Source: Shigella phage B2. From it: a stretch of DNA of 64,000 bases. The stretch lies in sequence record OM858838. One strand, 5' to 3'. Shown one piece after another: positions 3,320 through 40,611 of this stretch. Below the pieces are notes generated by a model. That model was not told where the DNA came from, ran no database searches, and saw nothing but the letters and a program-made list of their open reading frames with translations. The stretch's first letter is position 1. Each line of letters opens with the position of its first letter. Position numbers and translations under genes: made by a program.

Positions 3320-4025
3320 ATTGGGCTGTTTAAACTTCGTGAATTCGGGGAAAATCCAGAACGGACAATCCCGAGCCAAGTCAACCAATCATGTCTTAAG
3401 AGGCAGAATGGACACTAAAAAATTAGAATATTTATATGAAAACACTTCTTTATCTCAGAAAGAGATTGCTAAGTGTTTAGGATTAAAATCTGCTAGGGCT
3501 GTTCAAAAATATTGTTACAGACACTATACAAGTGCCTATCGTAAAGAAAGGCATTCCAAGCTATTAGCTAAAGCTAAACTAGGAAGTTTAAACCCTATGT
3601 TTGGTAAATCTGGTTTATACCACCCCAGATATCTAGGAGTTGTCTCTGACAACAAAGGGTATTGGATGGTATTAAAACCAGAGTGGTATACAGGGCGTAA
3701 AAGCAGTAAGCATGTATTTTTACATTCTGTAGTTGTATGTGAACATCTAGGATGGACAGAAATACCGAAAGGGTATGTAGTTCATCATTGTGATTTTGAC
3801 CCATCAAATAATGATTTTGATAATTTAGTGGTGCTTACTGTAGCAGAACATATGAGCTTACATGCAGCATTGAAAGGTGTAACGACTATCTCGAAAGAGA
3901 GTACACTCAAGTGGGTGGAAGCGCGAAGGGCTGGTAACAGCCATGATATAGTCTGACCTGTATAGGAATATACAGCAGCACTGAATAGTGCGAGTACAGC
4001 TTAACGAACTGTACTGAACGTAGTG
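3314..4025 (+). other. putative group I intron in DNA polymerase gene (carries HNH endonuclease ORF)
   Basis: 5' splice site after U3313; exon agccu can pair with intron gggcu (3323-3327) as P1 with U.G at the splice site; intron ends on G4025; hairpins ctgtata-ggaa-tatacag and gtacag-n9-ctgtac in 3' region; splicing 3313/4026 gives in-frame GRLSSSKP-NMQQIP. Confidence 0.55.
3418..3956 (+). CDS. HNH homing endonuclease (intron-encoded)
   Basis: HNH motif HHCDFDPSNNDFDNLVVLTVAEHMSLH; start moved to ATG 3418 with GAGG RBS (track start 3321 lies in intron 5' structure). Confidence 0.75.
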
Positions 4026-4967
4026 AATATGCAACAAATCCCATCCTCTAAGAGTCCTTATGCCAAGCCTATTAAGCGATGCTTTAAAGCTGGTAAAGGT
4101 TGGCTTCTTATTGGGTTAGACTTTGCATCTCTAGAGGACCGTATTTCAGCTCTGACAACCAAAGACCCCAATAAACTTAAAGTTTATACTGATGGGTATG
4201 ATGGTCATTCTCTCAGAGCATTCGCTTACTTTGGCGACCAAATGCCTGATATTCAGAATACAGTGGATAGTATTAATAGTATTCAGGACTTATATAAGGA
4301 CTTTAGACAAGAATCTAAAGCTCCTACTTTTGCACTTACCTATCAAGGTACTTATCACACATTGATGGCTAACTGTGGCTTCCCAGAAGACAAAGCGAAA
4401 ATGGTTGAAAAGAGGTATCACGAACTCTATTTCGTCTCTGACCAATGGGTAGACGCCAAGTTAGCACAAGCCAGCAAAGATGGTTATATCACTGCTGCAT
4501 TCGGATTAAGAATCCGTACTCCATTACTCAAAAATGTTGTCTGGGGAATTAAACAAACACCATATGAAGCCAAAGCAGAAGGCAGAACTGCTGGTAATGC
4601 TTTAGGTCAGTCTTGGTGCTTGTTAAATAACCGAGCAGCAAATGAGTTTATGGAACGTGTATGGAATTCTCCTTATGCAGATGTAATCAAACCATGCGCT
4701 CAAATTCATGATGCTCAGTATTATCTGGTTCCAGATGATATTGATATTGTTCATTGGGTTAATGAGAACTTAGTTGAGTGTGTTCAATGGCAAGACCATC
4801 CCGATATCTATCACGAGGAAGTGAAGTTAGGAGGAGATTTAAGTGTCTTTTACCCATCATGGGCTAATGATATCTCCTTAAAGAATGGAGCTTCTAGAGA
4901 AGAAATCTTAGATACATGTGAAGTTGGATTGGATAAGTATCTTCACCCGGAGAAATATAAAAAATGA
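4026..4967 (+). CDS. family-A DNA polymerase, 3' part (palm/fingers); putative exon 2
   Basis: NMQQIP completes the split motif; motif A LDFASLEDRI, motif B KAPTFALTYQGTY, motif C QIHDAQY. Track ORF starts at GTG 4023. Confidence 0.8.
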   Translation, partial: NMQQIPSSKSPYAKPIKRCFKAGKGWLLIGLDFASLEDRISALTTKDPNKLKVYTDGYDGHSLRAFAYFGDQMPDIQNTVDSINSIQDLYKDFRQESKAPTFALTYQGTYHTLMANCGFPEDKAKMVEKRYHELYFVSDQWVDAKLAQASKDGYITAAFGLRIRTPLLKNVVWGIKQTPYEAKAEGRTAGNALGQSWCLLNNRAANEFMERVWNSPYADVIKPCAQIHDAQYYLVPDDIDIVHWVNENLVECVQWQDHPDIYHEEVKLGGDLSVFYPSWANDISLKNGASREEILDTCEVGLDKYLHPEKYKK

Positions 4968-5341
4968 GTATCTTACAGTCCCCTATTGATAATGCTCCTG
5001 CAATCTTACAGGAAGCACATCGTTGTATTGCTGACAGAGCACATGAACGTGACCAAGAATCTGAACGTTCAATGGAACGCACTGTAGCAGCCTTCAATGC
5101 AATGTATAAGCTCAACCTGACAGAAGAACAGGGTTGGATGTTTATGGTCTTCCTGAAAGCTGCAAGAGCTTCAGGAGGCTCATTCAAGCTTGATGACTAT
5201 GTTGATGGCTCTGCTTACTTTGCGTTAGCTGGTGAAGCTGCTATGCCACATCCTCAATTAGAACTGTCACTTTCTGAACCAGAAATGACTAGAAAACATG
5301 CAGAACATTTCGGAATTCCATTAGGAAAGGAACAAATCTAA
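4964..5341 (+). CDS. hypothetical protein
   Basis: 125-aa ORF, start overlaps polymerase stop. Confidence 0.45.
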   Translation: MSILQSPIDNAPAILQEAHRCIADRAHERDQESERSMERTVAAFNAMYKLNLTEEQGWMFMVFLKAARASGGSFKLDDYVDGSAYFALAGEAAMPHPQLELSLSEPEMTRKHAEHFGIPLGKEQI

Positions 5342-6105
5342 TGCAAGTTAAGTATGTAGACCATATGGGTAATGACCAACGTATTGTTGATGTTGCTCGT
5401 CAGTCATTTGCTAAGACAGATGCCACTGTACGTACTGAAGCTCAGAACCAAGGATTGATTCGTTATTTAGCTGAAGGTATTTCTTCTAAAGAAAGAGATT
5501 CAATTATCTTATCTATCCTGAAAGGTGTAAGTAATGAATTCTATTTTGATACTGAAGAAGATGCCGAGAAAGCTGCTGAAGAATTGTATAGAGATATTCG
5601 TCACCAAGCAGTGCATTGGACTCCATTTGCTCATACTGCAATAACCCTTCAGATGCAGGCTCCTATTCCTATTCGTACCCAAGCTTTTAAACATAAGCAG
5701 GGTTTAGTAGAGAATGAGGAATCTCGTCGATATATCAGTACAACGCCTGAAATATTTGTACCTGAATTTCGTTTAAGACCTGAAGGTTCAATCAAGCAAG
5801 GTAGTGCTGGTATTCATCCTGCTAATGATGATTGGAAACATACATACATTCAGATGACACAGGATGCTGTGTTTACTTATGAACGTATGATTGCAGAAGG
5901 TATTGCTCCTGAACAAGCCAGATTCATCTTACCTCAAGGTGTAGAAGTTAACTGGACTTGGACTGGCAACTTATTAGCTTTTGCTAACTTCTATAACAAA
6001 AGAAGTGATGCCCATGCTCAACAAGAAATCCAAGATTTAGCTGAGATGGTTCGTGCAATCATTGAACCACTATTTCCAATATCTTGGAAAGCTCTTACTC
6101 AATAA
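5341..6105 (+). CDS. ThyX-like flavin-dependent thymidylate synthase (variant signature)
   Basis: Recalled ThyX blocks: VDHMGNDQRIVDVARQSF, TPFAHTAITLQMQAPIPIRTQAF, ESRRY, ARFILPQGVEVNWTWTGNLLAFANFYNKRSDAHAQQEIQDLA; canonical RHR appears as KHK. Confidence 0.65.
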   Translation: MQVKYVDHMGNDQRIVDVARQSFAKTDATVRTEAQNQGLIRYLAEGISSKERDSIILSILKGVSNEFYFDTEEDAEKAAEELYRDIRHQAVHWTPFAHTAITLQMQAPIPIRTQAFKHKQGLVENEESRRYISTTPEIFVPEFRLRPEGSIKQGSAGIHPANDDWKHTYIQMTQDAVFTYERMIAEGIAPEQARFILPQGVEVNWTWTGNLLAFANFYNKRSDAHAQQEIQDLAEMVRAIIEPLFPISWKALTQ

Positions 6106-35637: not shown

Positions 35638-36138
35638 ATGAAACGTACTATCTCTAATAATGGTTTAAAATTTACTGCTGCTTGGGAACAACTGAAAACC
35701 AAAGCATATAGAGCTACTAGTCAGGAAGAGTATCTCACTATTGGATATGGGCATTATGGTCCTGATGTAAAACCAGGAGATACAATTACTCCAGATGGTG
35801 CTTTAAATCTTTTAAACAGTGATATGGCTAAAGCTACACGTAAAGCTAATGAACTGGTCCATCCTAACTTTAACCAAGCTCAATTCGATGCAATCGTTGA
35901 CCTATGTTTTAACGTGGGTACAGGTGTTATTGAAAAAGATAATGTCTTAGGTGACTTTGATGATGCTGTCAGATTAGGTAACGTCAAAGAAGCTAGACGT
36001 ATTATGTCTCAATTTATCTATCAGAATAAGAAACCATTACTTGGATTAAAAAGACGTACTGAAGGACGTCTTGCACTCTTTGATGGTAAGACTTGGTCTG
36101 AAGCAGAAAGAATTGGGAGAGAGGTGAAGTCGTTATGA
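35638..36138 (+). CDS. endolysin, T4-type lysozyme fold
   Basis: WEQLKTKAY...YLTIGYGH and C-terminal RRTEGRLALF resemble phage lysozymes. Confidence 0.6.
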   Translation: MKRTISNNGLKFTAAWEQLKTKAYRATSQEEYLTIGYGHYGPDVKPGDTITPDGALNLLNSDMAKATRKANELVHPNFNQAQFDAIVDLCFNVGTGVIEKDNVLGDFDDAVRLGNVKEARRIMSQFIYQNKKPLLGLKRRTEGRLALFDGKTWSEAERIGREVKSL

Positions 36139-36680
36139 CAGATAGAACCAAGTTAATATTACTTGGTTTAGTTGCTGTAGCTCTCATTTCGGTGGGAGCT
36201 TTTTTTGCTTGGTACATTACCAGCAATAAATATGAAAAGGACTTAGCAACTTTAACCAGTGAATATAATACTCAACTCAAAAAGATATCTGACAAAGCTT
36301 CAGCAGATATGGCTGATGAAATCAAAAGACATAATGCTACTCAAGCTCAGTTAGATGCTCTTGATGCTAAACATACTAAAGAGAATCTTGAACATGAAAA
36401 AGCTAATGCTCAGCTTAAACTTGATATTGCTACTGGCAATCGTAAGCTGCAATTCGCCAACGCAGGTCTTGCAACCTGTAAGCTCTCCAAAGATACAGGA
36501 GACAAAGCCAGCAGCTTGGGCAATGGAACCGAAGTCGAACTCTCTCCAACTGTTCAACAAGACCTTCTCGATATCAGAAATGGAATCCAATCAGACCAAG
36601 ATAAATTAGACTATCTTCAGAATTACATAAGAGTAAGAGGATGGGATGATGGCAGTACTATCCAGCAAACAGAGAAATAA
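36135..36680 (+). CDS. i-spanin (Rz-like)
   Basis: N-terminal TM helix then coiled-coil; follows endolysin. Confidence 0.5.
   Translation: MTDRTKLILLGLVAVALISVGAFFAWYITSNKYEKDLATLTSEYNTQLKKISDKASADMADEIKRHNATQAQLDALDAKHTKENLEHEKANAQLKLDIATGNRKLQFANAGLATCKLSKDTGDKASSLGNGTEVELSPTVQQDLLDIRNGIQSDQDKLDYLQNYIRVRGWDDGSTIQQTEK
36394..36609 (+). CDS. o-spanin (Rz1-like lipoprotein), nested in i-spanin gene
   Basis: +1 frame inside 36135-36680; lipoprotein signal MKKLMLSLNLILLLAIVSC then Pro/Ser-rich tail. Confidence 0.5.
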   Translation: MKKLMLSLNLILLLAIVSCNSPTQVLQPVSSPKIQETKPAAWAMEPKSNSLQLFNKTFSISEMESNQTKIN

Positions 36681-36849
36681 ACTTCCTGATTCTGCATTTG
36701 CAGGACCAGATAGAAGTTATCCAGTACATGATAAAGCTCATGCTGCTAACGCTAAAGCCAGAGCAACTCAACAATATGAAGCAGGTAATCTAAGTAAATC
36801 AGCCAGAGATAAGATTCGTGCCAAAGCCAATAAAGTGTTGTATGGCTAA
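36646..36849 (+). CDS. hypothetical protein
   Basis: 67-aa basic ORF. Confidence 0.3.
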   Translation: MMAVLSSKQRNKLPDSAFAGPDRSYPVHDKAHAANAKARATQQYEAGNLSKSARDKIRAKANKVLYG

Positions 36850-36890
36850 TTAGTTATGTATACTCATACTGCCAACTTATAGGAGGTCTT

Positions 36891-37190
36891 ATGGCATACT
36901 CAGATGTTGATGCAATTCTTGCTGATGGTAAACAAGCTGTAGCTGTTAAACATGGTGGTGGTTTAGTTGTTGTAGGTGAACTTGGTGCTCAAGTACTTGC
37001 AGCTAAAGACGTAAGTGAATTACCAGATGGTGTAGGTGGTACTGCTCCAGGTGCTGCTACTACTACTACTGCTGGTGTAGTTAAACAATCAACTACTCAA
37101 GCAGCTTCAGTAGCTACTGATGTAGCAGGTGTAGTTACTGATTTGAATGCTTTAATTACTAAGCTAAAAGCTGCTGGTATTATGGCTTAA
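36891..37190 (+). CDS. MAYSD-family protein, paralog A
   Basis: Shares N-terminal ~45 aa (MAYSD.D...DGK...GGG..V...L.AKD..ELP) and upstream leader with 37268-37903. Confidence 0.5.
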   Translation: MAYSDVDAILADGKQAVAVKHGGGLVVVGELGAQVLAAKDVSELPDGVGGTAPGAATTTTAGVVKQSTTQAASVATDVAGVVTDLNALITKLKAAGIMA

Positions 37191-37210
37191 TTCTTACGAA
37201 AGAATATACA

Positions 37211-37236
37211 AAGCTCCTTCGGGAGCTTTTTTTGTA
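37211..37236 (+). terminator. rho-independent terminator
   Basis: aagctcc-ttcg-ggagctt followed by T7. Confidence 0.7.
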
Positions 37237-37267
37237 TACTGTCATTGCCTACTTATAAGGAGGGCAT

Positions 37268-37903
37268 ATGGCTTATTCAGATTTGGATGATGTATTTGAA
37301 GATGGTAAAGATATCATTCCAAAACAAGGTGGAGGAATTGCTGTAATTAGTCCTTTTGGAGAAGAAATACTTTCTGCTAAAGATGCTACAGAACTTCCAT
37401 TTGTTGTTACTCCTCCAGAGACACCTGAAGATATCTTCTTATTAGATATCTTTAACTGGACTGGTAATTTATCTATTCCTACAAGTGCTACTACATTCAC
37501 TAACTTCTTTGCATTATCAGGTATAACCAAGAATCCTATTGGTACTGCTGGGTTGACTATTACTTCTGGTAATCTCCTATTCCCATTGAGAACCAAACAT
37601 AGTCAAGTAATCTTCTCCATTCGTGTTTCTGGAAGTGTTGCTGGTGCAGCAGGTACTGATAGAGAATGGAAGATTCAAACCAGAAGACCTAATGGAGATA
37701 TTGTTGGTTCTGATTTTGCTGTTAAAACTGTAGCTGATACAGATATCAGTAACCGTGATACTACTTTATCAAGTTATGCACTAGCCAATACTGACCCATT
37801 CTTTACTCAGGGTATTCAGTTAGGTCTATTTAATAACTCGGGTCAAACTATCACTCTTACTTCAGTATCTGTTCGAATACTACAAACAATTAATCCAAGC
37901 TAA
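37268..37903 (+). CDS. MAYSD-family protein, paralog B
   Basis: Same N-terminal module as 36891-37190 with a longer, unrelated C-terminal domain. Confidence 0.5.
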   Translation: MAYSDLDDVFEDGKDIIPKQGGGIAVISPFGEEILSAKDATELPFVVTPPETPEDIFLLDIFNWTGNLSIPTSATTFTNFFALSGITKNPIGTAGLTITSGNLLFPLRTKHSQVIFSIRVSGSVAGAAGTDREWKIQTRRPNGDIVGSDFAVKTVADTDISNRDTTLSSYALANTDPFFTQGIQLGLFNNSGQTITLTSVSVRILQTINPS

Positions 37904-37908
37904 ATATA

Positions 37909-37930
37909 AGGCCCTACGGGGCCTTTTCTT
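37909..37930 (+). terminator. rho-independent terminator
   Basis: aggccc-tacg-gggcct followed by T-run. Confidence 0.65.
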
Positions 37931-37943
37931 ATTGAGGTAATAC

Positions 37944-38264
37944 ATGAGAGTCAAAACATATCTAAGACGCCAGAGAGAAGGCTCTATACCTGTTAAATCA
38001 AGTAATGATGATATAGGTATACAAGAGTATCCTGACGTACTCTTAACCATGTACATCAACACACTTGAAAATGGAGATTCTCCGAGAGCCTTACGTGAAG
38101 GTATTAAGGAAATTATGAAACGAGTTCAATCTCCTAGAGTTAAGTCCATCCTCCAAGATATCAAACGAGCTACATCACCAGTAGGCAGATTACATTTTTA
38201 CTATGGTGCTTTGGAACGTGACTTAGAAGAGATTAGAGACATATCAAAAGAAAGCCCCCAATAA
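37944..38264 (+). CDS. hypothetical protein
   Basis: 106-aa ORF. Confidence 0.4.
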   Translation: MRVKTYLRRQREGSIPVKSSNDDIGIQEYPDVLLTMYINTLENGDSPRALREGIKEIMKRVQSPRVKSILQDIKRATSPVGRLHFYYGALERDLEEIRDISKESPQ

Positions 38265-38275
38265 GGGGGCTATTT
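38253..38275. terminator. bidirectional terminator
   Basis: gccccc-aataa-gggggc between convergent genes; T-rich run on - strand side. Confidence 0.55.
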
Positions 38276-38277
38276 AC

Positions 38278-40611
38278 TTAGATGGATGCTTCAGAGTTAC
38301 CAAACATATCCCAAGCTTCTAACTCAATATTCCAGTATGAAGTTGGAGGAGTAGAAGGCCACGTTATATTAATATCTAAAACAAGTCCGCCATTCCCTGC
38401 ACCTACACCAATAGTGACATAAGAAGCCATATCAATATCTCGTATGGTTTCTAATGGCATATTAGGGCCATTAGCTCCAGCAACTTTAAGGTCTTTCATA
38501 CTATAGTGGGCCGCAGTTGCTGTAATAGCTGTTGGTTGGTTACCTGTTGCATATGTAGTCTTAAGGATTTTACCAGTGAATACATACCCACCACCAGTAG
38601 TCTTGATTAATAAGACCTCTAAATAATCCCCACTACTGTTACTAATTTTAAGTACGGAATGCCCACAGTTATAGAAATTAGTACCTAAATCTCCAGAAAT
38701 AGATGGAGTAGTAGGAAGCATACTTTGTGGCATTGGTACTTGAAAATTAACTAATGCAGTAGCCGTAGGCAAAGTTGCTTGGTTATATGCCTGCGGAATT
38801 TTTTTAGAATAAACAGCACGATGACCTTTATCAAATCTAGCCCAATTACGTGCTTGAACAGACATACCTACAGGCACAGGTTGTACAGTCAAAGAGTTAA
38901 GATAAAAATCTCCTCCAGTACCCTGTAAATTGGTAAAAAATGTAAGAGTTTTCCAACCACGACCCAGAATTCTACCAACAAATTTCCTATCTGCTGAGTA
39001 TGTAGTACTCAGGTCAACAATGGCATTATTCGCTGCTTGAGGTGAGTTAGAAAAATTAATGGACTGGTTATTAGCGAAATCATAATAATCTTGTGCGCCA
39101 TTATTCCACCAACTAGGAGCATCAACAAGAACGTTTATTGGACCAGCACCACTACCATGTACAAAAATATGTGCTGCTTCTGCATCTAAATAAAAACTGA
39201 ATGTTGCAATAGATGCTACATTAGCAAGCATACCCCCCACAACTTTAGTACGGGTATACGCACCATCAGAACGACCTAAGTTAATATTACCCGTAGCATC
39301 GCAATAGCCAATGCTATCATCTAAACGACCACACCAAGTATTAATCTCATTAGTGAGTGGACGGTAGGTTGGTAACAAACCACCAGCCATAAACATAGAT
39401 GCTAGCATCTGACCATGAATCGCATAACCCATGGAGTTAAAGTGACCACCATCAGATTGCACTGCACCATTATGACGATAGTACTGAACTTCATCAGCAT
39501 TGAAATGAGCACAACCATATGTGTCAGCCATCATACGCATACGTTTTGCCCACAGGTTAGCAACAACACCGCCAGAACCCTGACCACCAGTAGAGCAAGT
39601 CTGGACAACTACACCCATACCCCAATCAATGAAGCGACGGATGAGTTTTTCCATATACTCCATGTAAATATCTTCAGTAGTTCCAGCAACACCACCAGCA
39701 TCGTTCAAACCTAACATTAAAATAACAACATCACAGTTAGGATTGGATTGCCATGATGGTTCATTGTATGACTGAATTGCTGTATGTCCTGAAATAGCAC
39801 GATATACACCAGTAACACTACAACCTGACTGTTCTGGTAAGTAAGCCATAAAACGTTGAGGATAAGTCATACTAGCATGAGTAGCCCAATCCCCGTTGTT
39901 AGCAGGAACACGGTCAGTAGAAGTAGTATCGTAACCAGCAGTCATTGAGTCACCCTGGAACAATACTTTGATTGAACCACGACTATGAACTTGCTTATCT
40001 ACCCAAGCTAATTTCTGGATATTACGTGCACGGTAATTTGCTGAATCATTAGCAATAATCCACTGTTGTACAGTTTTACCATCAGACGTACCAATCTGGG
40101 ATGCACCACCAGTAGTAGCTAATTCATCTCGTAACTCTTCACCAGTAACTTCAATCCATGCTGATGCACTAATACCTCCACTTGAAGCAGGAGTTGAACC
40201 AGCAGGAACTACTTTAGGTACTGCCCCCGCCCAACGATATTGAGCGCCATTAGAATGGGTAAGAATTTCATTCTTAACCTGAATGGTTGCACCAGAAGTA
40301 AAGTCACCAGGAATAGTCACATACTCTTTACGCAAAACAGCTACTGCTCCAAGGTCTACAGAACCTTGTGAATGTACAAGTACAGCAGCAGTACTAAGAC
40401 TGATGGCAGTAGTACCAGCAGGAATACCAATAGGTAAGGAGTAAGCTCTTTGCGTGGTCTTGTCATAAATTACTTTATATCCAGAGATATCAACACCAAC
40501 AGAGAAATAAACAACCTCAGACTGTTTAACTCCGAAGTGTCTAGCTACTGCTTGTTTATTGGTTAGGATTCCAGCAGAACCTTTACCACCTTGACTAAAT
40601 AACTGATTCAT
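38278..40611 (-). CDS. tailspike / tail protein with SGNH (GDSL) esterase domain
   Basis: SGNH blocks VLFQGDSMTAGY, GLNDAG, DGGHFN. Confidence 0.6.
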   Translation of the reverse strand: MNQLFSQGGKGSAGILTNKQAVARHFGVKQSEVVYFSVGVDISGYKVIYDKTTQRAYSLPIGIPAGTTAISLSTAAVLVHSQGSVDLGAVAVLRKEYVTIPGDFTSGATIQVKNEILTHSNGAQYRWAGAVPKVVPAGSTPASSGGISASAWIEVTGEELRDELATTGGASQIGTSDGKTVQQWIIANDSANYRARNIQKLAWVDKQVHSRGSIKVLFQGDSMTAGYDTTSTDRVPANNGDWATHASMTYPQRFMAYLPEQSGCSVTGVYRAISGHTAIQSYNEPSWQSNPNCDVVILMLGLNDAGGVAGTTEDIYMEYMEKLIRRFIDWGMGVVVQTCSTGGQGSGGVVANLWAKRMRMMADTYGCAHFNADEVQYYRHNGAVQSDGGHFNSMGYAIHGQMLASMFMAGGLLPTYRPLTNEINTWCGRLDDSIGYCDATGNINLGRSDGAYTRTKVVGGMLANVASIATFSFYLDAEAAHIFVHGSGAGPINVLVDAPSWWNNGAQDYYDFANNQSINFSNSPQAANNAIVDLSTTYSADRKFVGRILGRGWKTLTFFTNLQGTGGDFYLNSLTVQPVPVGMSVQARNWARFDKGHRAVYSKKIPQAYNQATLPTATALVNFQVPMPQSMLPTTPSISGDLGTNFYNCGHSVLKISNSSGDYLEVLLIKTTGGGYVFTGKILKTTYATGNQPTAITATAAHYSMKDLKVAGANGPNMPLETIRDIDMASYVTIGVGAGNGGLVLDINITWPSTPPTSYWNIELEAWDMFGNSEASI

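Follow-up and report, generated by a model that had tools for sequence, protein, structure and literature searches.

Shigella phage B2 capsid protein gp45 and its paralog gp46 join different distal domains to a common N-terminal module

The DNA analysed here is a stretch of 64,000 nucleotides (nt) of Shigella phage B2 (OM858838), an N4-like phage of the genus Ithacavirus, and is referred to below as the window. It carries two adjacent genes, A and B, encoding the capsid decoration protein gp45, the structure of which is already solved, and an uncharacterised paralog, gp46. Our analysis suggests that gp45 and gp46 are ancient paralogs, both of them appendages of the capsid with a common attachment part. 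An N-terminal module of ~45 amino acids (aa) would dock on the capsid and the C-terminal parts would act as interchangeable distal modules, namely a short phi29-type trimeric head-fibre tip in gp45 and, in gp46, a trimeric TNF/C1q-like knob reached through a Pro-rich linker. That gp46 is indeed a second head fibre, sharing the gp45 anchor on the capsid with a swapped distal module, we consider evenly balanced. The paralogy of the two proteins, the knob architecture of gp46, the four-way cargo of the module and the exchange of cassettes are new, being reported neither in the paper describing B2 (PMC11654681) nor in other literature found.

gp45 and gp46 are paralogs

The gene A product is identical at 99 of 99 residues to chain J of PDB 9D82, 'B2 Dec Gp45' (E 3e-54). 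This protein was detected by mass spectrometry (MS) of CsCl-purified B2 virions and modelled in the cryo-electron microscopy (cryo-EM) capsid map as a homotrimeric decoration protein without a structural homolog, its function being left open as stabilisation or something else (Subramanian et al., Sci Adv 2024, PMC11654681). We find that its C-terminal part belongs to the head-fibre families. It scores 40.4 bits against Pfam PF11133 (Phage_head_fibr; cut-off 24.6), aligning only to positions 233-277 of the 277 in the profile, which represent the tip, and it matches the phi29 gp8.5 chains 6QVK and 3QC7 in a PDB search (E 3e-7) as well as head-fibre PHROGs. Profile positions 1-232, covering the gp8.5-like base and supercoiled helix-turn-helix shaft, have no match in gp45 or gp46. 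The AlphaFold2 (AF2) model of gp45 has a confident helix at aa 78-95. In prophages of Salmonella, E. coli, Cronobacter and Bacillus, many unrelated N-termini are followed by this ~45-residue tip (…ATDVAGVVTDLNALITKLKAAGIM), which can thus be regarded as a promiscuous distal module.

A preliminary description of this locus, made from the sequence alone, had proposed that the two genes share an N-terminal domain of ~45 aa and then diverge completely, and both statements hold. BLASTP aligns gp45 aa 1-45 with gp46 aa 1-44 at 22 identities in 45 positions (E 1e-14), and detects no significant similarity between the two proteins beyond this module. Likewise, in a PDB search only aa 1-47 of gp46 find a match, which is to gp45 aa 1-48 (E 1.3e-7). 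The module is predicted to form a short helix and a beta-hairpin, ending E-L-P.

When 1.84 billion representative proteins were searched exhaustively with a five-sequence hidden Markov model profile of the module, only nine representatives were recovered, and every one with an examined genomic origin comes from an N4-like phage or contig. In these phages at least four kinds of distal domain follow the module: the phi29-type tip (in proteins of 98-101 aa), a longer head-fibre coiled coil (122-128 aa, phrog_4366), the gene-B knob (201-212 aa) and, in protein P0048, a true Sf6-type knob (Pfam PF16532, E 1.9e-32). Fusion of the N-terminal module to a true PF16532 knob is encoded at positions 241-849 of an N4-like contig from Logan SRR14520624 (L019), in the equivalent locus, beside tailspike genes and a gene for a 234-aa adaptor-like protein. 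Where the context is readable, module genes of N4-like genomes sit between the lysis and tailspike genes, as an A and B pair in Ithacavirus and Triduovirus, and as a single knob-type gene of inverted orientation in Gamaleyavirus and related contigs; Moo19 is without a module gene. Module identity is 57-92% within the A-type across genera and 30-49% between A- and B-type, and this grouping of A-type modules across genera indicates that the duplication predates the split of Ithacavirus and Triduovirus.

Allele exchange and natural deletion

Salmonella Ithacaviruses (Schitoviridae, Humphriesvirinae) match the region at 90-98% identity. When the window is compared with seven relatives, giving eight Ithacavirus sequences in all, the flanks are at least 95% identical and the cassette bodies fall into discrete alleles. 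Gene A encodes either 99 aa or 128 aa, and gene B occurs as two main types ~55% identical, that of SP-076 being a ~94% aa-identical variant of type 1. All four combinations of short or long A with type 1 or type 2 B are present, so that the locus is a mosaic. Throughout this exchange the first 29 residues of the module are invariant in all gp45 alleles, despite the swap of the C-terminus between the 99-aa and 128-aa types, as would suit a part held constant by a conserved partner. Identity breaks down inside the module or just past it, where the A terminator meets the B leader, and again at the terminator of B, so that the repeated regulatory sequences coincide with the recombination boundaries. 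The repeated leader and terminator sequences could in this way provide the points of homology for exchange of cassette alleles among related phages.

In Salmonella phage UTK0002 an in-frame deletion of ~1047 bp, corresponding to window positions 36939-37985, has removed both genes. The resulting fusion (4883-5209 in the UTK0002 sequence, L003) joins gp45 residues 1-16 to the homolog of gp47, the product of the next gene downstream, from its residue 15 onward, and the junction lies at a CT/GCT microhomology. As UTK0002 is a plaque-forming podovirus of normal morphology (PMC10282790), gp45 and gp46 are dispensable in the laboratory, which is expected for an accessory decoration and not for an essential part of the tail. 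Gene B is intact in the other seven of the eight sequences, and also in TR2 and Bp4. Its ratio of non-synonymous to synonymous substitution (dN/dS) is 0.09-0.35 for pairs whose dS ranges between 0.06 and more than 2, establishing that gp46 is under purifying selection and the product of a functional gene.

The gp46 knob

A Pro-rich linker of ~10 residues (aa ~46-54) joins the gp46 module to its C-terminal domain. gp46 has no Pfam match, and its sole family is phrog_17779, of unknown function; a profile of the knob family retrieved nothing from the PDB by sequence, and comparison of the knob with PF16532 revealed no sequence likeness (13% identity; hhalign probability 20% against P0048). In contrast, its predicted structure matches the trimeric knobs at the distal ends of Sf6 gp9, PRD1 P5, BclA and C1q/TNF, the closest being the Sf6 tail-needle knob (gene 9 protein, PDB 3RWN, PF16532), to which it is thus alike in fold though not in sequence. 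The model places the knob in the TNF/C1q-like fold class, with the TNF-like jelly-roll fold in gp46 and a collagen-like stalk in front of the head in homologs. TNF/C1q-like knobs cap phage needles, spikes and fibres, where they usually contact a surface ligand. By analogy, the gp46 knob, modelled here as a monomer, is predicted to be a homotrimer and may likewise bind a ligand.

Homologs of the knob are found behind collagen triple-helix repeats (P0028, P0029, P0038), which implies a trimeric stalk with a C-terminal head. They also follow the tail-fibre genes in Chaseviridae, occur as gp18.8 of a T7-like phage, and lie between the portal and scaffold genes in epsilon15-like phages. Such varied settings indicate that the knob, like the gp45 tip, is another mobile distal module.

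Several further occurrences were recorded. The epsilon15-like Salmonella virus PAT1 encodes a knob-only homolog of 181 aa (3929-4474), ~59% identical to the gp46 knob, within its head-morphogenesis module, with the portal gene on one side and the scaffold/protease and capsid genes on the other; Salmonella genomes label the same protein 'protease'. A tblastn search detected unannotated matches to only the last ~70-85 knob residues, at 59-62% identity, in the ~150-kb Escherichia/Salmonella myoviruses PC3, PH4, A221, RPN242, SKML-39, LHE287 and YX22, which could be gene fragments or unannotated small open reading frames (ORFs). Recognition of the knob corrects the database labels of the gene-B family, variously 'protease', 'tail needle knob' and 'hypothetical'.

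Leaders and terminators

The plus strand from 36850 to 37935 consists of two complete cassettes, each with a leader, an ORF and a terminator hairpin, and the duplicated leader and separate terminator for each gene of the preliminary description were confirmed. The leaders are identical at 27 of 34 positions with one gap (alignment score 18), and the hairpins are T-tailed, with folding energies of -13.9 (A) and -13.5 (B) kcal/mol. The leader similarity is significant, as had been asked of it: the maximum score in 5000 shuffles was 8, and the best of the other 148 window ORFs with 60 aa or more, each represented by the 35 nt upstream of it, scored 4. A degenerate 25-nt leader motif, allowing up to three mismatches, occurs only at these two sites in the 64 kb, where 0 are expected. 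Identity between the leaders (79%) exceeds that of the coding DNA for the shared module (63%, 85/135; third codon positions 21/45, 47%), and since they are better kept than the coding DNA they adjoin, the leaders are apparently under a constraint of their own and not a mere remnant of duplication. The gene A leader is identical in seven of the eight Ithacavirus sequences, that of UTK0002 differing by one base, and TATACT-N5-TGCC...GGAGG is kept also in the Triduovirus TR2, where the surrounding sequence differs. The gene A terminator, which abuts the gene B leader, is conserved in relatives.

Late genes of N4 are transcribed by the host sigma-70 RNA polymerase directed by N4 SSB (PMC4496689), and by this analogy the leader is a candidate promoter. 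Each gene would then be a self-contained cassette of -10-like TATACT, short conserved leader, strong GGAGG ribosome-binding site, gene and intrinsic terminator, probably read late from its own start by the host sigma-70 RNA polymerase. Two results speak against such independent expression. A two-hexamer sigma-70 scan (-35 and -10 at 16-18 nt spacing) found no promoter at either leader, the -10-like TATACT being present and conserved without a -35 element, and in FSL SP-076 the -10-like element of gene B, which lies ~30 nt before the start of the gene at 5343 (L005), is broken (TAGCT), although the gene itself is conserved and intact. Read-through from gene A may be a further source of gene B expression. 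The possibility that the leader motif is a phage-wide late-promoter consensus was ruled out, as within the window it is private to these two genes. The gene A hairpin is extendable, in that TATACA (37205-37210) can pair with TGTATA of the gene-B -10-like element, and GTATAC is by itself a palindrome; the extension is not conserved in TR2 and is therefore probably incidental.

Location of gp46

If gp46 is a capsid appendage, its N-terminal module is the most plausible capsid-binding end, on three grounds. gp45, the sole module protein that has been located, is on the capsid; the N-termini of phage fibres are normally virion-proximal; and the module is invariant where C-termini are swapped. TNF-like knobs, the heads of collagen-plus-head proteins and the phi29 tip are, correspondingly, C-terminal and distal. 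A trimeric gp46 fibre would occupy gp45 docking sites and expose a knob of ligand-binding type, and it would probably be present at low occupancy or loosely bound.

A number of observations weigh against placing gp46 on the capsid. When the two proteins are sought in virions, as the preliminary description had advised, gp45 is found by both MS and cryo-EM, and gp46 is not among the proteins of the B2 virion MS table that lists gp45, nor is any extra capsid or tail density ascribed to it in that paper (PMC11654681). The text of the same paper does not give the residue ranges through which gp45 contacts the capsid. AF2 confidence for the module is low (block means of 48-72 in the gp46 model and 47-54 in that of gp45), and 9D82 was not among the matches when the AF2 monomer of gp45 was used in structure searches. 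In Gamaleyaviruses only the gene-B type is present, together with a Hoc-like decoration protein, and in Moo19 the Hoc-like decoration protein occupies the capsid site of B2 gp45 (PMC11654681). In favour of a place on the particle, a 'G-9 protein', which its GenBank annotation ('tail needle knob') and gene order suggest is a gene-B homolog, was found by liquid chromatography-tandem mass spectrometry (LC-MS/MS) in purified particles of four Gamaleyavirus (UE) phages (PMC11927229). This proteome comprises 44-56 of ~86 gene products, and because it includes replication enzymes its specificity is low (PMC11927229). Among closer relatives, neither the TR2 paper nor the FSL SP-058/076 paper contains virion proteomics. 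We hold the capsid assignment of gp46 at about an equal chance because of its absence from the MS table, the undefined capsid contacts, the low AF2 confidence and the indirect identification of the G-9 protein.

A fuller version of this assignment, which we put forward tentatively and with more doubt than conviction, is that in Ithacavirus-type phages two alternative fibres compete for T=9 capsid sites through their common 45-residue anchor. One would be the abundant short gp45 tip and the other a rarer gp46 fibre bearing a TNF-like, Sf6-knob-like adhesin on the head. The capsid would thereby gain exchangeable ligand binding independent of the tailspikes, with the repeated terminator-promoter-leader units serving as recombination linkers for the swapping of head-fibre cassettes.

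Of the other explanations, the least improbable, though we think it unlikely, is that gp46 is made late and is not a stable virion component, either binding the capsid transiently or weakly and being lost in CsCl or acting off the particle, for instance as a cell-surface ligand binder set free at lysis. The missing MS signal would then be explained despite a leader and ribosome-binding site like those of the abundant gp45, and the dispensability of gene B and its position at the end of the lysis cassette are in agreement. Nevertheless, a genuine capsid protein carries the same module, relatives with collagen-plus-knob and needle-plus-knob architectures are virion fibres, and the homolog in the Gamaleyavirus particle preparations, for all their low specificity, points the same way.

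More improbable still is that gp46 is a tail protein, a low-copy tail-tip knob or an accessory of the tailspike complex, with the module serving as an oligomerisation or general docking element. Such a role would agree with the structural proximity of the knob to that of the Sf6 tail needle, with the true PF16532 needle knob borne by a relative on the same module, with the position of the gene beside tailspike genes in every N4-like phage examined and with the UE-phage annotation 'tail needle knob' alongside a gene labelled 'tail needle gp26'; shotgun MS could moreover miss a protein present at three copies per virion. The preliminary description had similarly thought the pair reminiscent of a modular tail-attachment system. 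Its notion of a common adaptor with swapped C-termini stands, yet the tail as the site of attachment is not supported, since gp45, the only module protein of known location, is on the capsid, its C-terminus is of the head-fibre families, and neither protein has PF18668, the adaptor domain. gp46 also lacks a needle-like coiled coil, portal, adaptor, tube and gp48/gp49 suffice to explain the B2 tail reconstruction (PMC11654681), and loss of a needle or plug protein is unlikely to be tolerated as the deletion of both genes is in a viable phage. The tailspike genes to which the preliminary description drew attention are indeed adjacent, with one small gene (gp47) between gene B and the tailspike gene gp48, but the relation is positional only.

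That gene B is the decaying copy of a recent tandem duplication, or resembles gene A by chance, has a negligible likelihood: the genes are adjacent and their upstream sequence is duplicated, but a recent duplication or pseudogene is refuted by the dN/dS values, by the separate grouping of A and B modules across genera, which makes the duplication old, and by the wide occurrence of intact gene B, and chance is excluded by the similarity statistics of module and leader.

Comparison with known systems

Tailspikes, PRD1 P5 and decoration proteins of the Hoc and pb10 types are familiar cases in which distal domains are swapped on a conserved N-terminal anchor. Within B2 itself the comparison is with gp45 (PDB 9D82), of which gp46 shares the first ~45 residues, carrying a linker and a ~155-aa TNF-like knob in place of the head-fibre tip; the paper on gp45 makes no mention of gp46. 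gp45 in turn resembles phi29 gp8.5 through its C-terminal ~50 residues, which match the tip, and both are trimeric capsid appendages; unlike gp8.5, gp45 is without the base and the helix-turn-helix shaft. The small head fibres (69-74 aa) of enterobacterial and Bacillus prophages have the same type of tip on N-termini unrelated to the module; a MAFFT alignment hinted at a link between these N-termini and the module, which hhalign rejected (0.2%).

The gp46 knob differs from that of Sf6 in being mounted on the gp45 module and a ~10-aa linker, not on a gp26-type trimeric coiled-coil needle. Compared with PRD1 P5 and BclA/C1q, gp46 has only the Pro-rich linker of ~10 residues, and the anchors are unrelated; P5 sits at the capsid vertices of a tail-less virus. 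T4 Hoc, T5 pb10 and SPP1 gp12 are dispensable capsid appendages at hexamer centres, each with a capsid-binding part and an exposed distal part, and SPP1 gp12, a small trimer, binds reversibly. They differ in fold (Ig-like or collagen-like) from gp45 and gp46, and to our knowledge none of them occurs as two paralogs with a common anchor. The tailspike adaptors of G7C/CBA120-type phages (PF18668) also combine conserved N-terminal attachment with exchangeable C-termini, and the neighbouring gp48 is such a protein (PF18668, E 1.9e-19). Neither gp45 nor gp46 matches this domain, and the attachment site of gp45 is the capsid and not the tail.

Were gp46 to dock on the capsid, the pair would provide competing head fibres amenable to structural study, a natural capsid-display scaffold in which a 45-residue anchor tolerates unrelated cargo, and a way to probe the function of head appendages with the natural double deletion of UTK0002 as control. 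The interest of the system would be higher if gp46 were shown on the capsid.

Organisation of the locus

The coordinates of the two cassettes and their neighbours are collected in Table 1. The numbers gp46 and gp47 follow from counting ORFs from portal gp39 to gp48-gp50, and the sizes of the portal (706 aa) and of the 410-aa and 234-aa proteins match those published for B2 gp39, gp49 and gp50.

Table 1. Features of the gp45-gp46 locus and adjoining genes (window coordinates)
Feature	Position	Strand	Remarks
Terminator-like hairpin within Rz ORF	36179-36200	+	9-bp stem, then TTTTTTT
gp44 (by count), 67-aa ORF	36646-36849	+	Overlaps 3' end of Rz spanin gene (36135-36680)
Gene A leader	36857-36890	+	From TGTATACT to the base preceding ATG
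Gene A leader, -10-like TATACT	36859-36864	+	
Gene A leader, TGCC(A)ACTTATA	36870-36881	+	
Gene A leader, GGAGG	36882-36886	+	Shine-Dalgarno
Gene A, gp45 ORF, 99 aa	36891-37190	+	Capsid decoration/head-fibre protein
gp45 shared N-terminal module, aa 1-46	36891-37028	+	Putative capsid anchor
gp45 phi29-type head-fibre tip, aa 47-99	37029-37187	+	Pfam, PDB and PHROG matches
Gene A intrinsic terminator	37210-37233	+	Hairpin 37210-37229, 8-bp stem, TTCG loop, T run
Gene B leader	37233-37267	+	Leader motif repeated upstream of gp46
Gene B leader, -10-like TATACT	37235-37240	+	
Gene B leader, TGCC(T)ACTTATA	37246-37257	+	
Gene B leader, GGAGG	37259-37263	+	Shine-Dalgarno
Gene B, gp46 ORF, 211 aa	37268-37903	+	Uncharacterised gp45 paralog, number by gene order
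gp46 shared N-terminal module, aa 1-45	37268-37402	+	Homology to gp45
gp46 TNF/C1q-like jelly-roll knob, aa ~55-211	37430-37900	+	Predicted fold
Gene B intrinsic terminator	37908-37933	+	Hairpin 37908-37925, then T tail
gp47, 106 aa, DUF7740	37944-38264	+	Third gene of plus strand block
Bidirectional terminator	38253-38271		End of gp47, common to convergent gp48
Tailspike gp48, 777 aa	38278-40611	-	Match to 9D84_A 'Gp48' over full length

Whether gp47 belongs to the gp45/gp46 system is uncertain; it is missing from the otherwise similar metagenomic contigs L017 and L018. An Rfam scan of 36500-38400 returned two sub-threshold chance matches and nothing more. Upstream, gp44 is kept in all Ithacaviruses compared and has a strong match to phrog_16160 and a weak one, below the Pfam cut-off, to DUF6582. 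The hairpin within the Rz gene lies ~40 nt past the endolysin stop codon, and might attenuate transcription within the lysis cassette.

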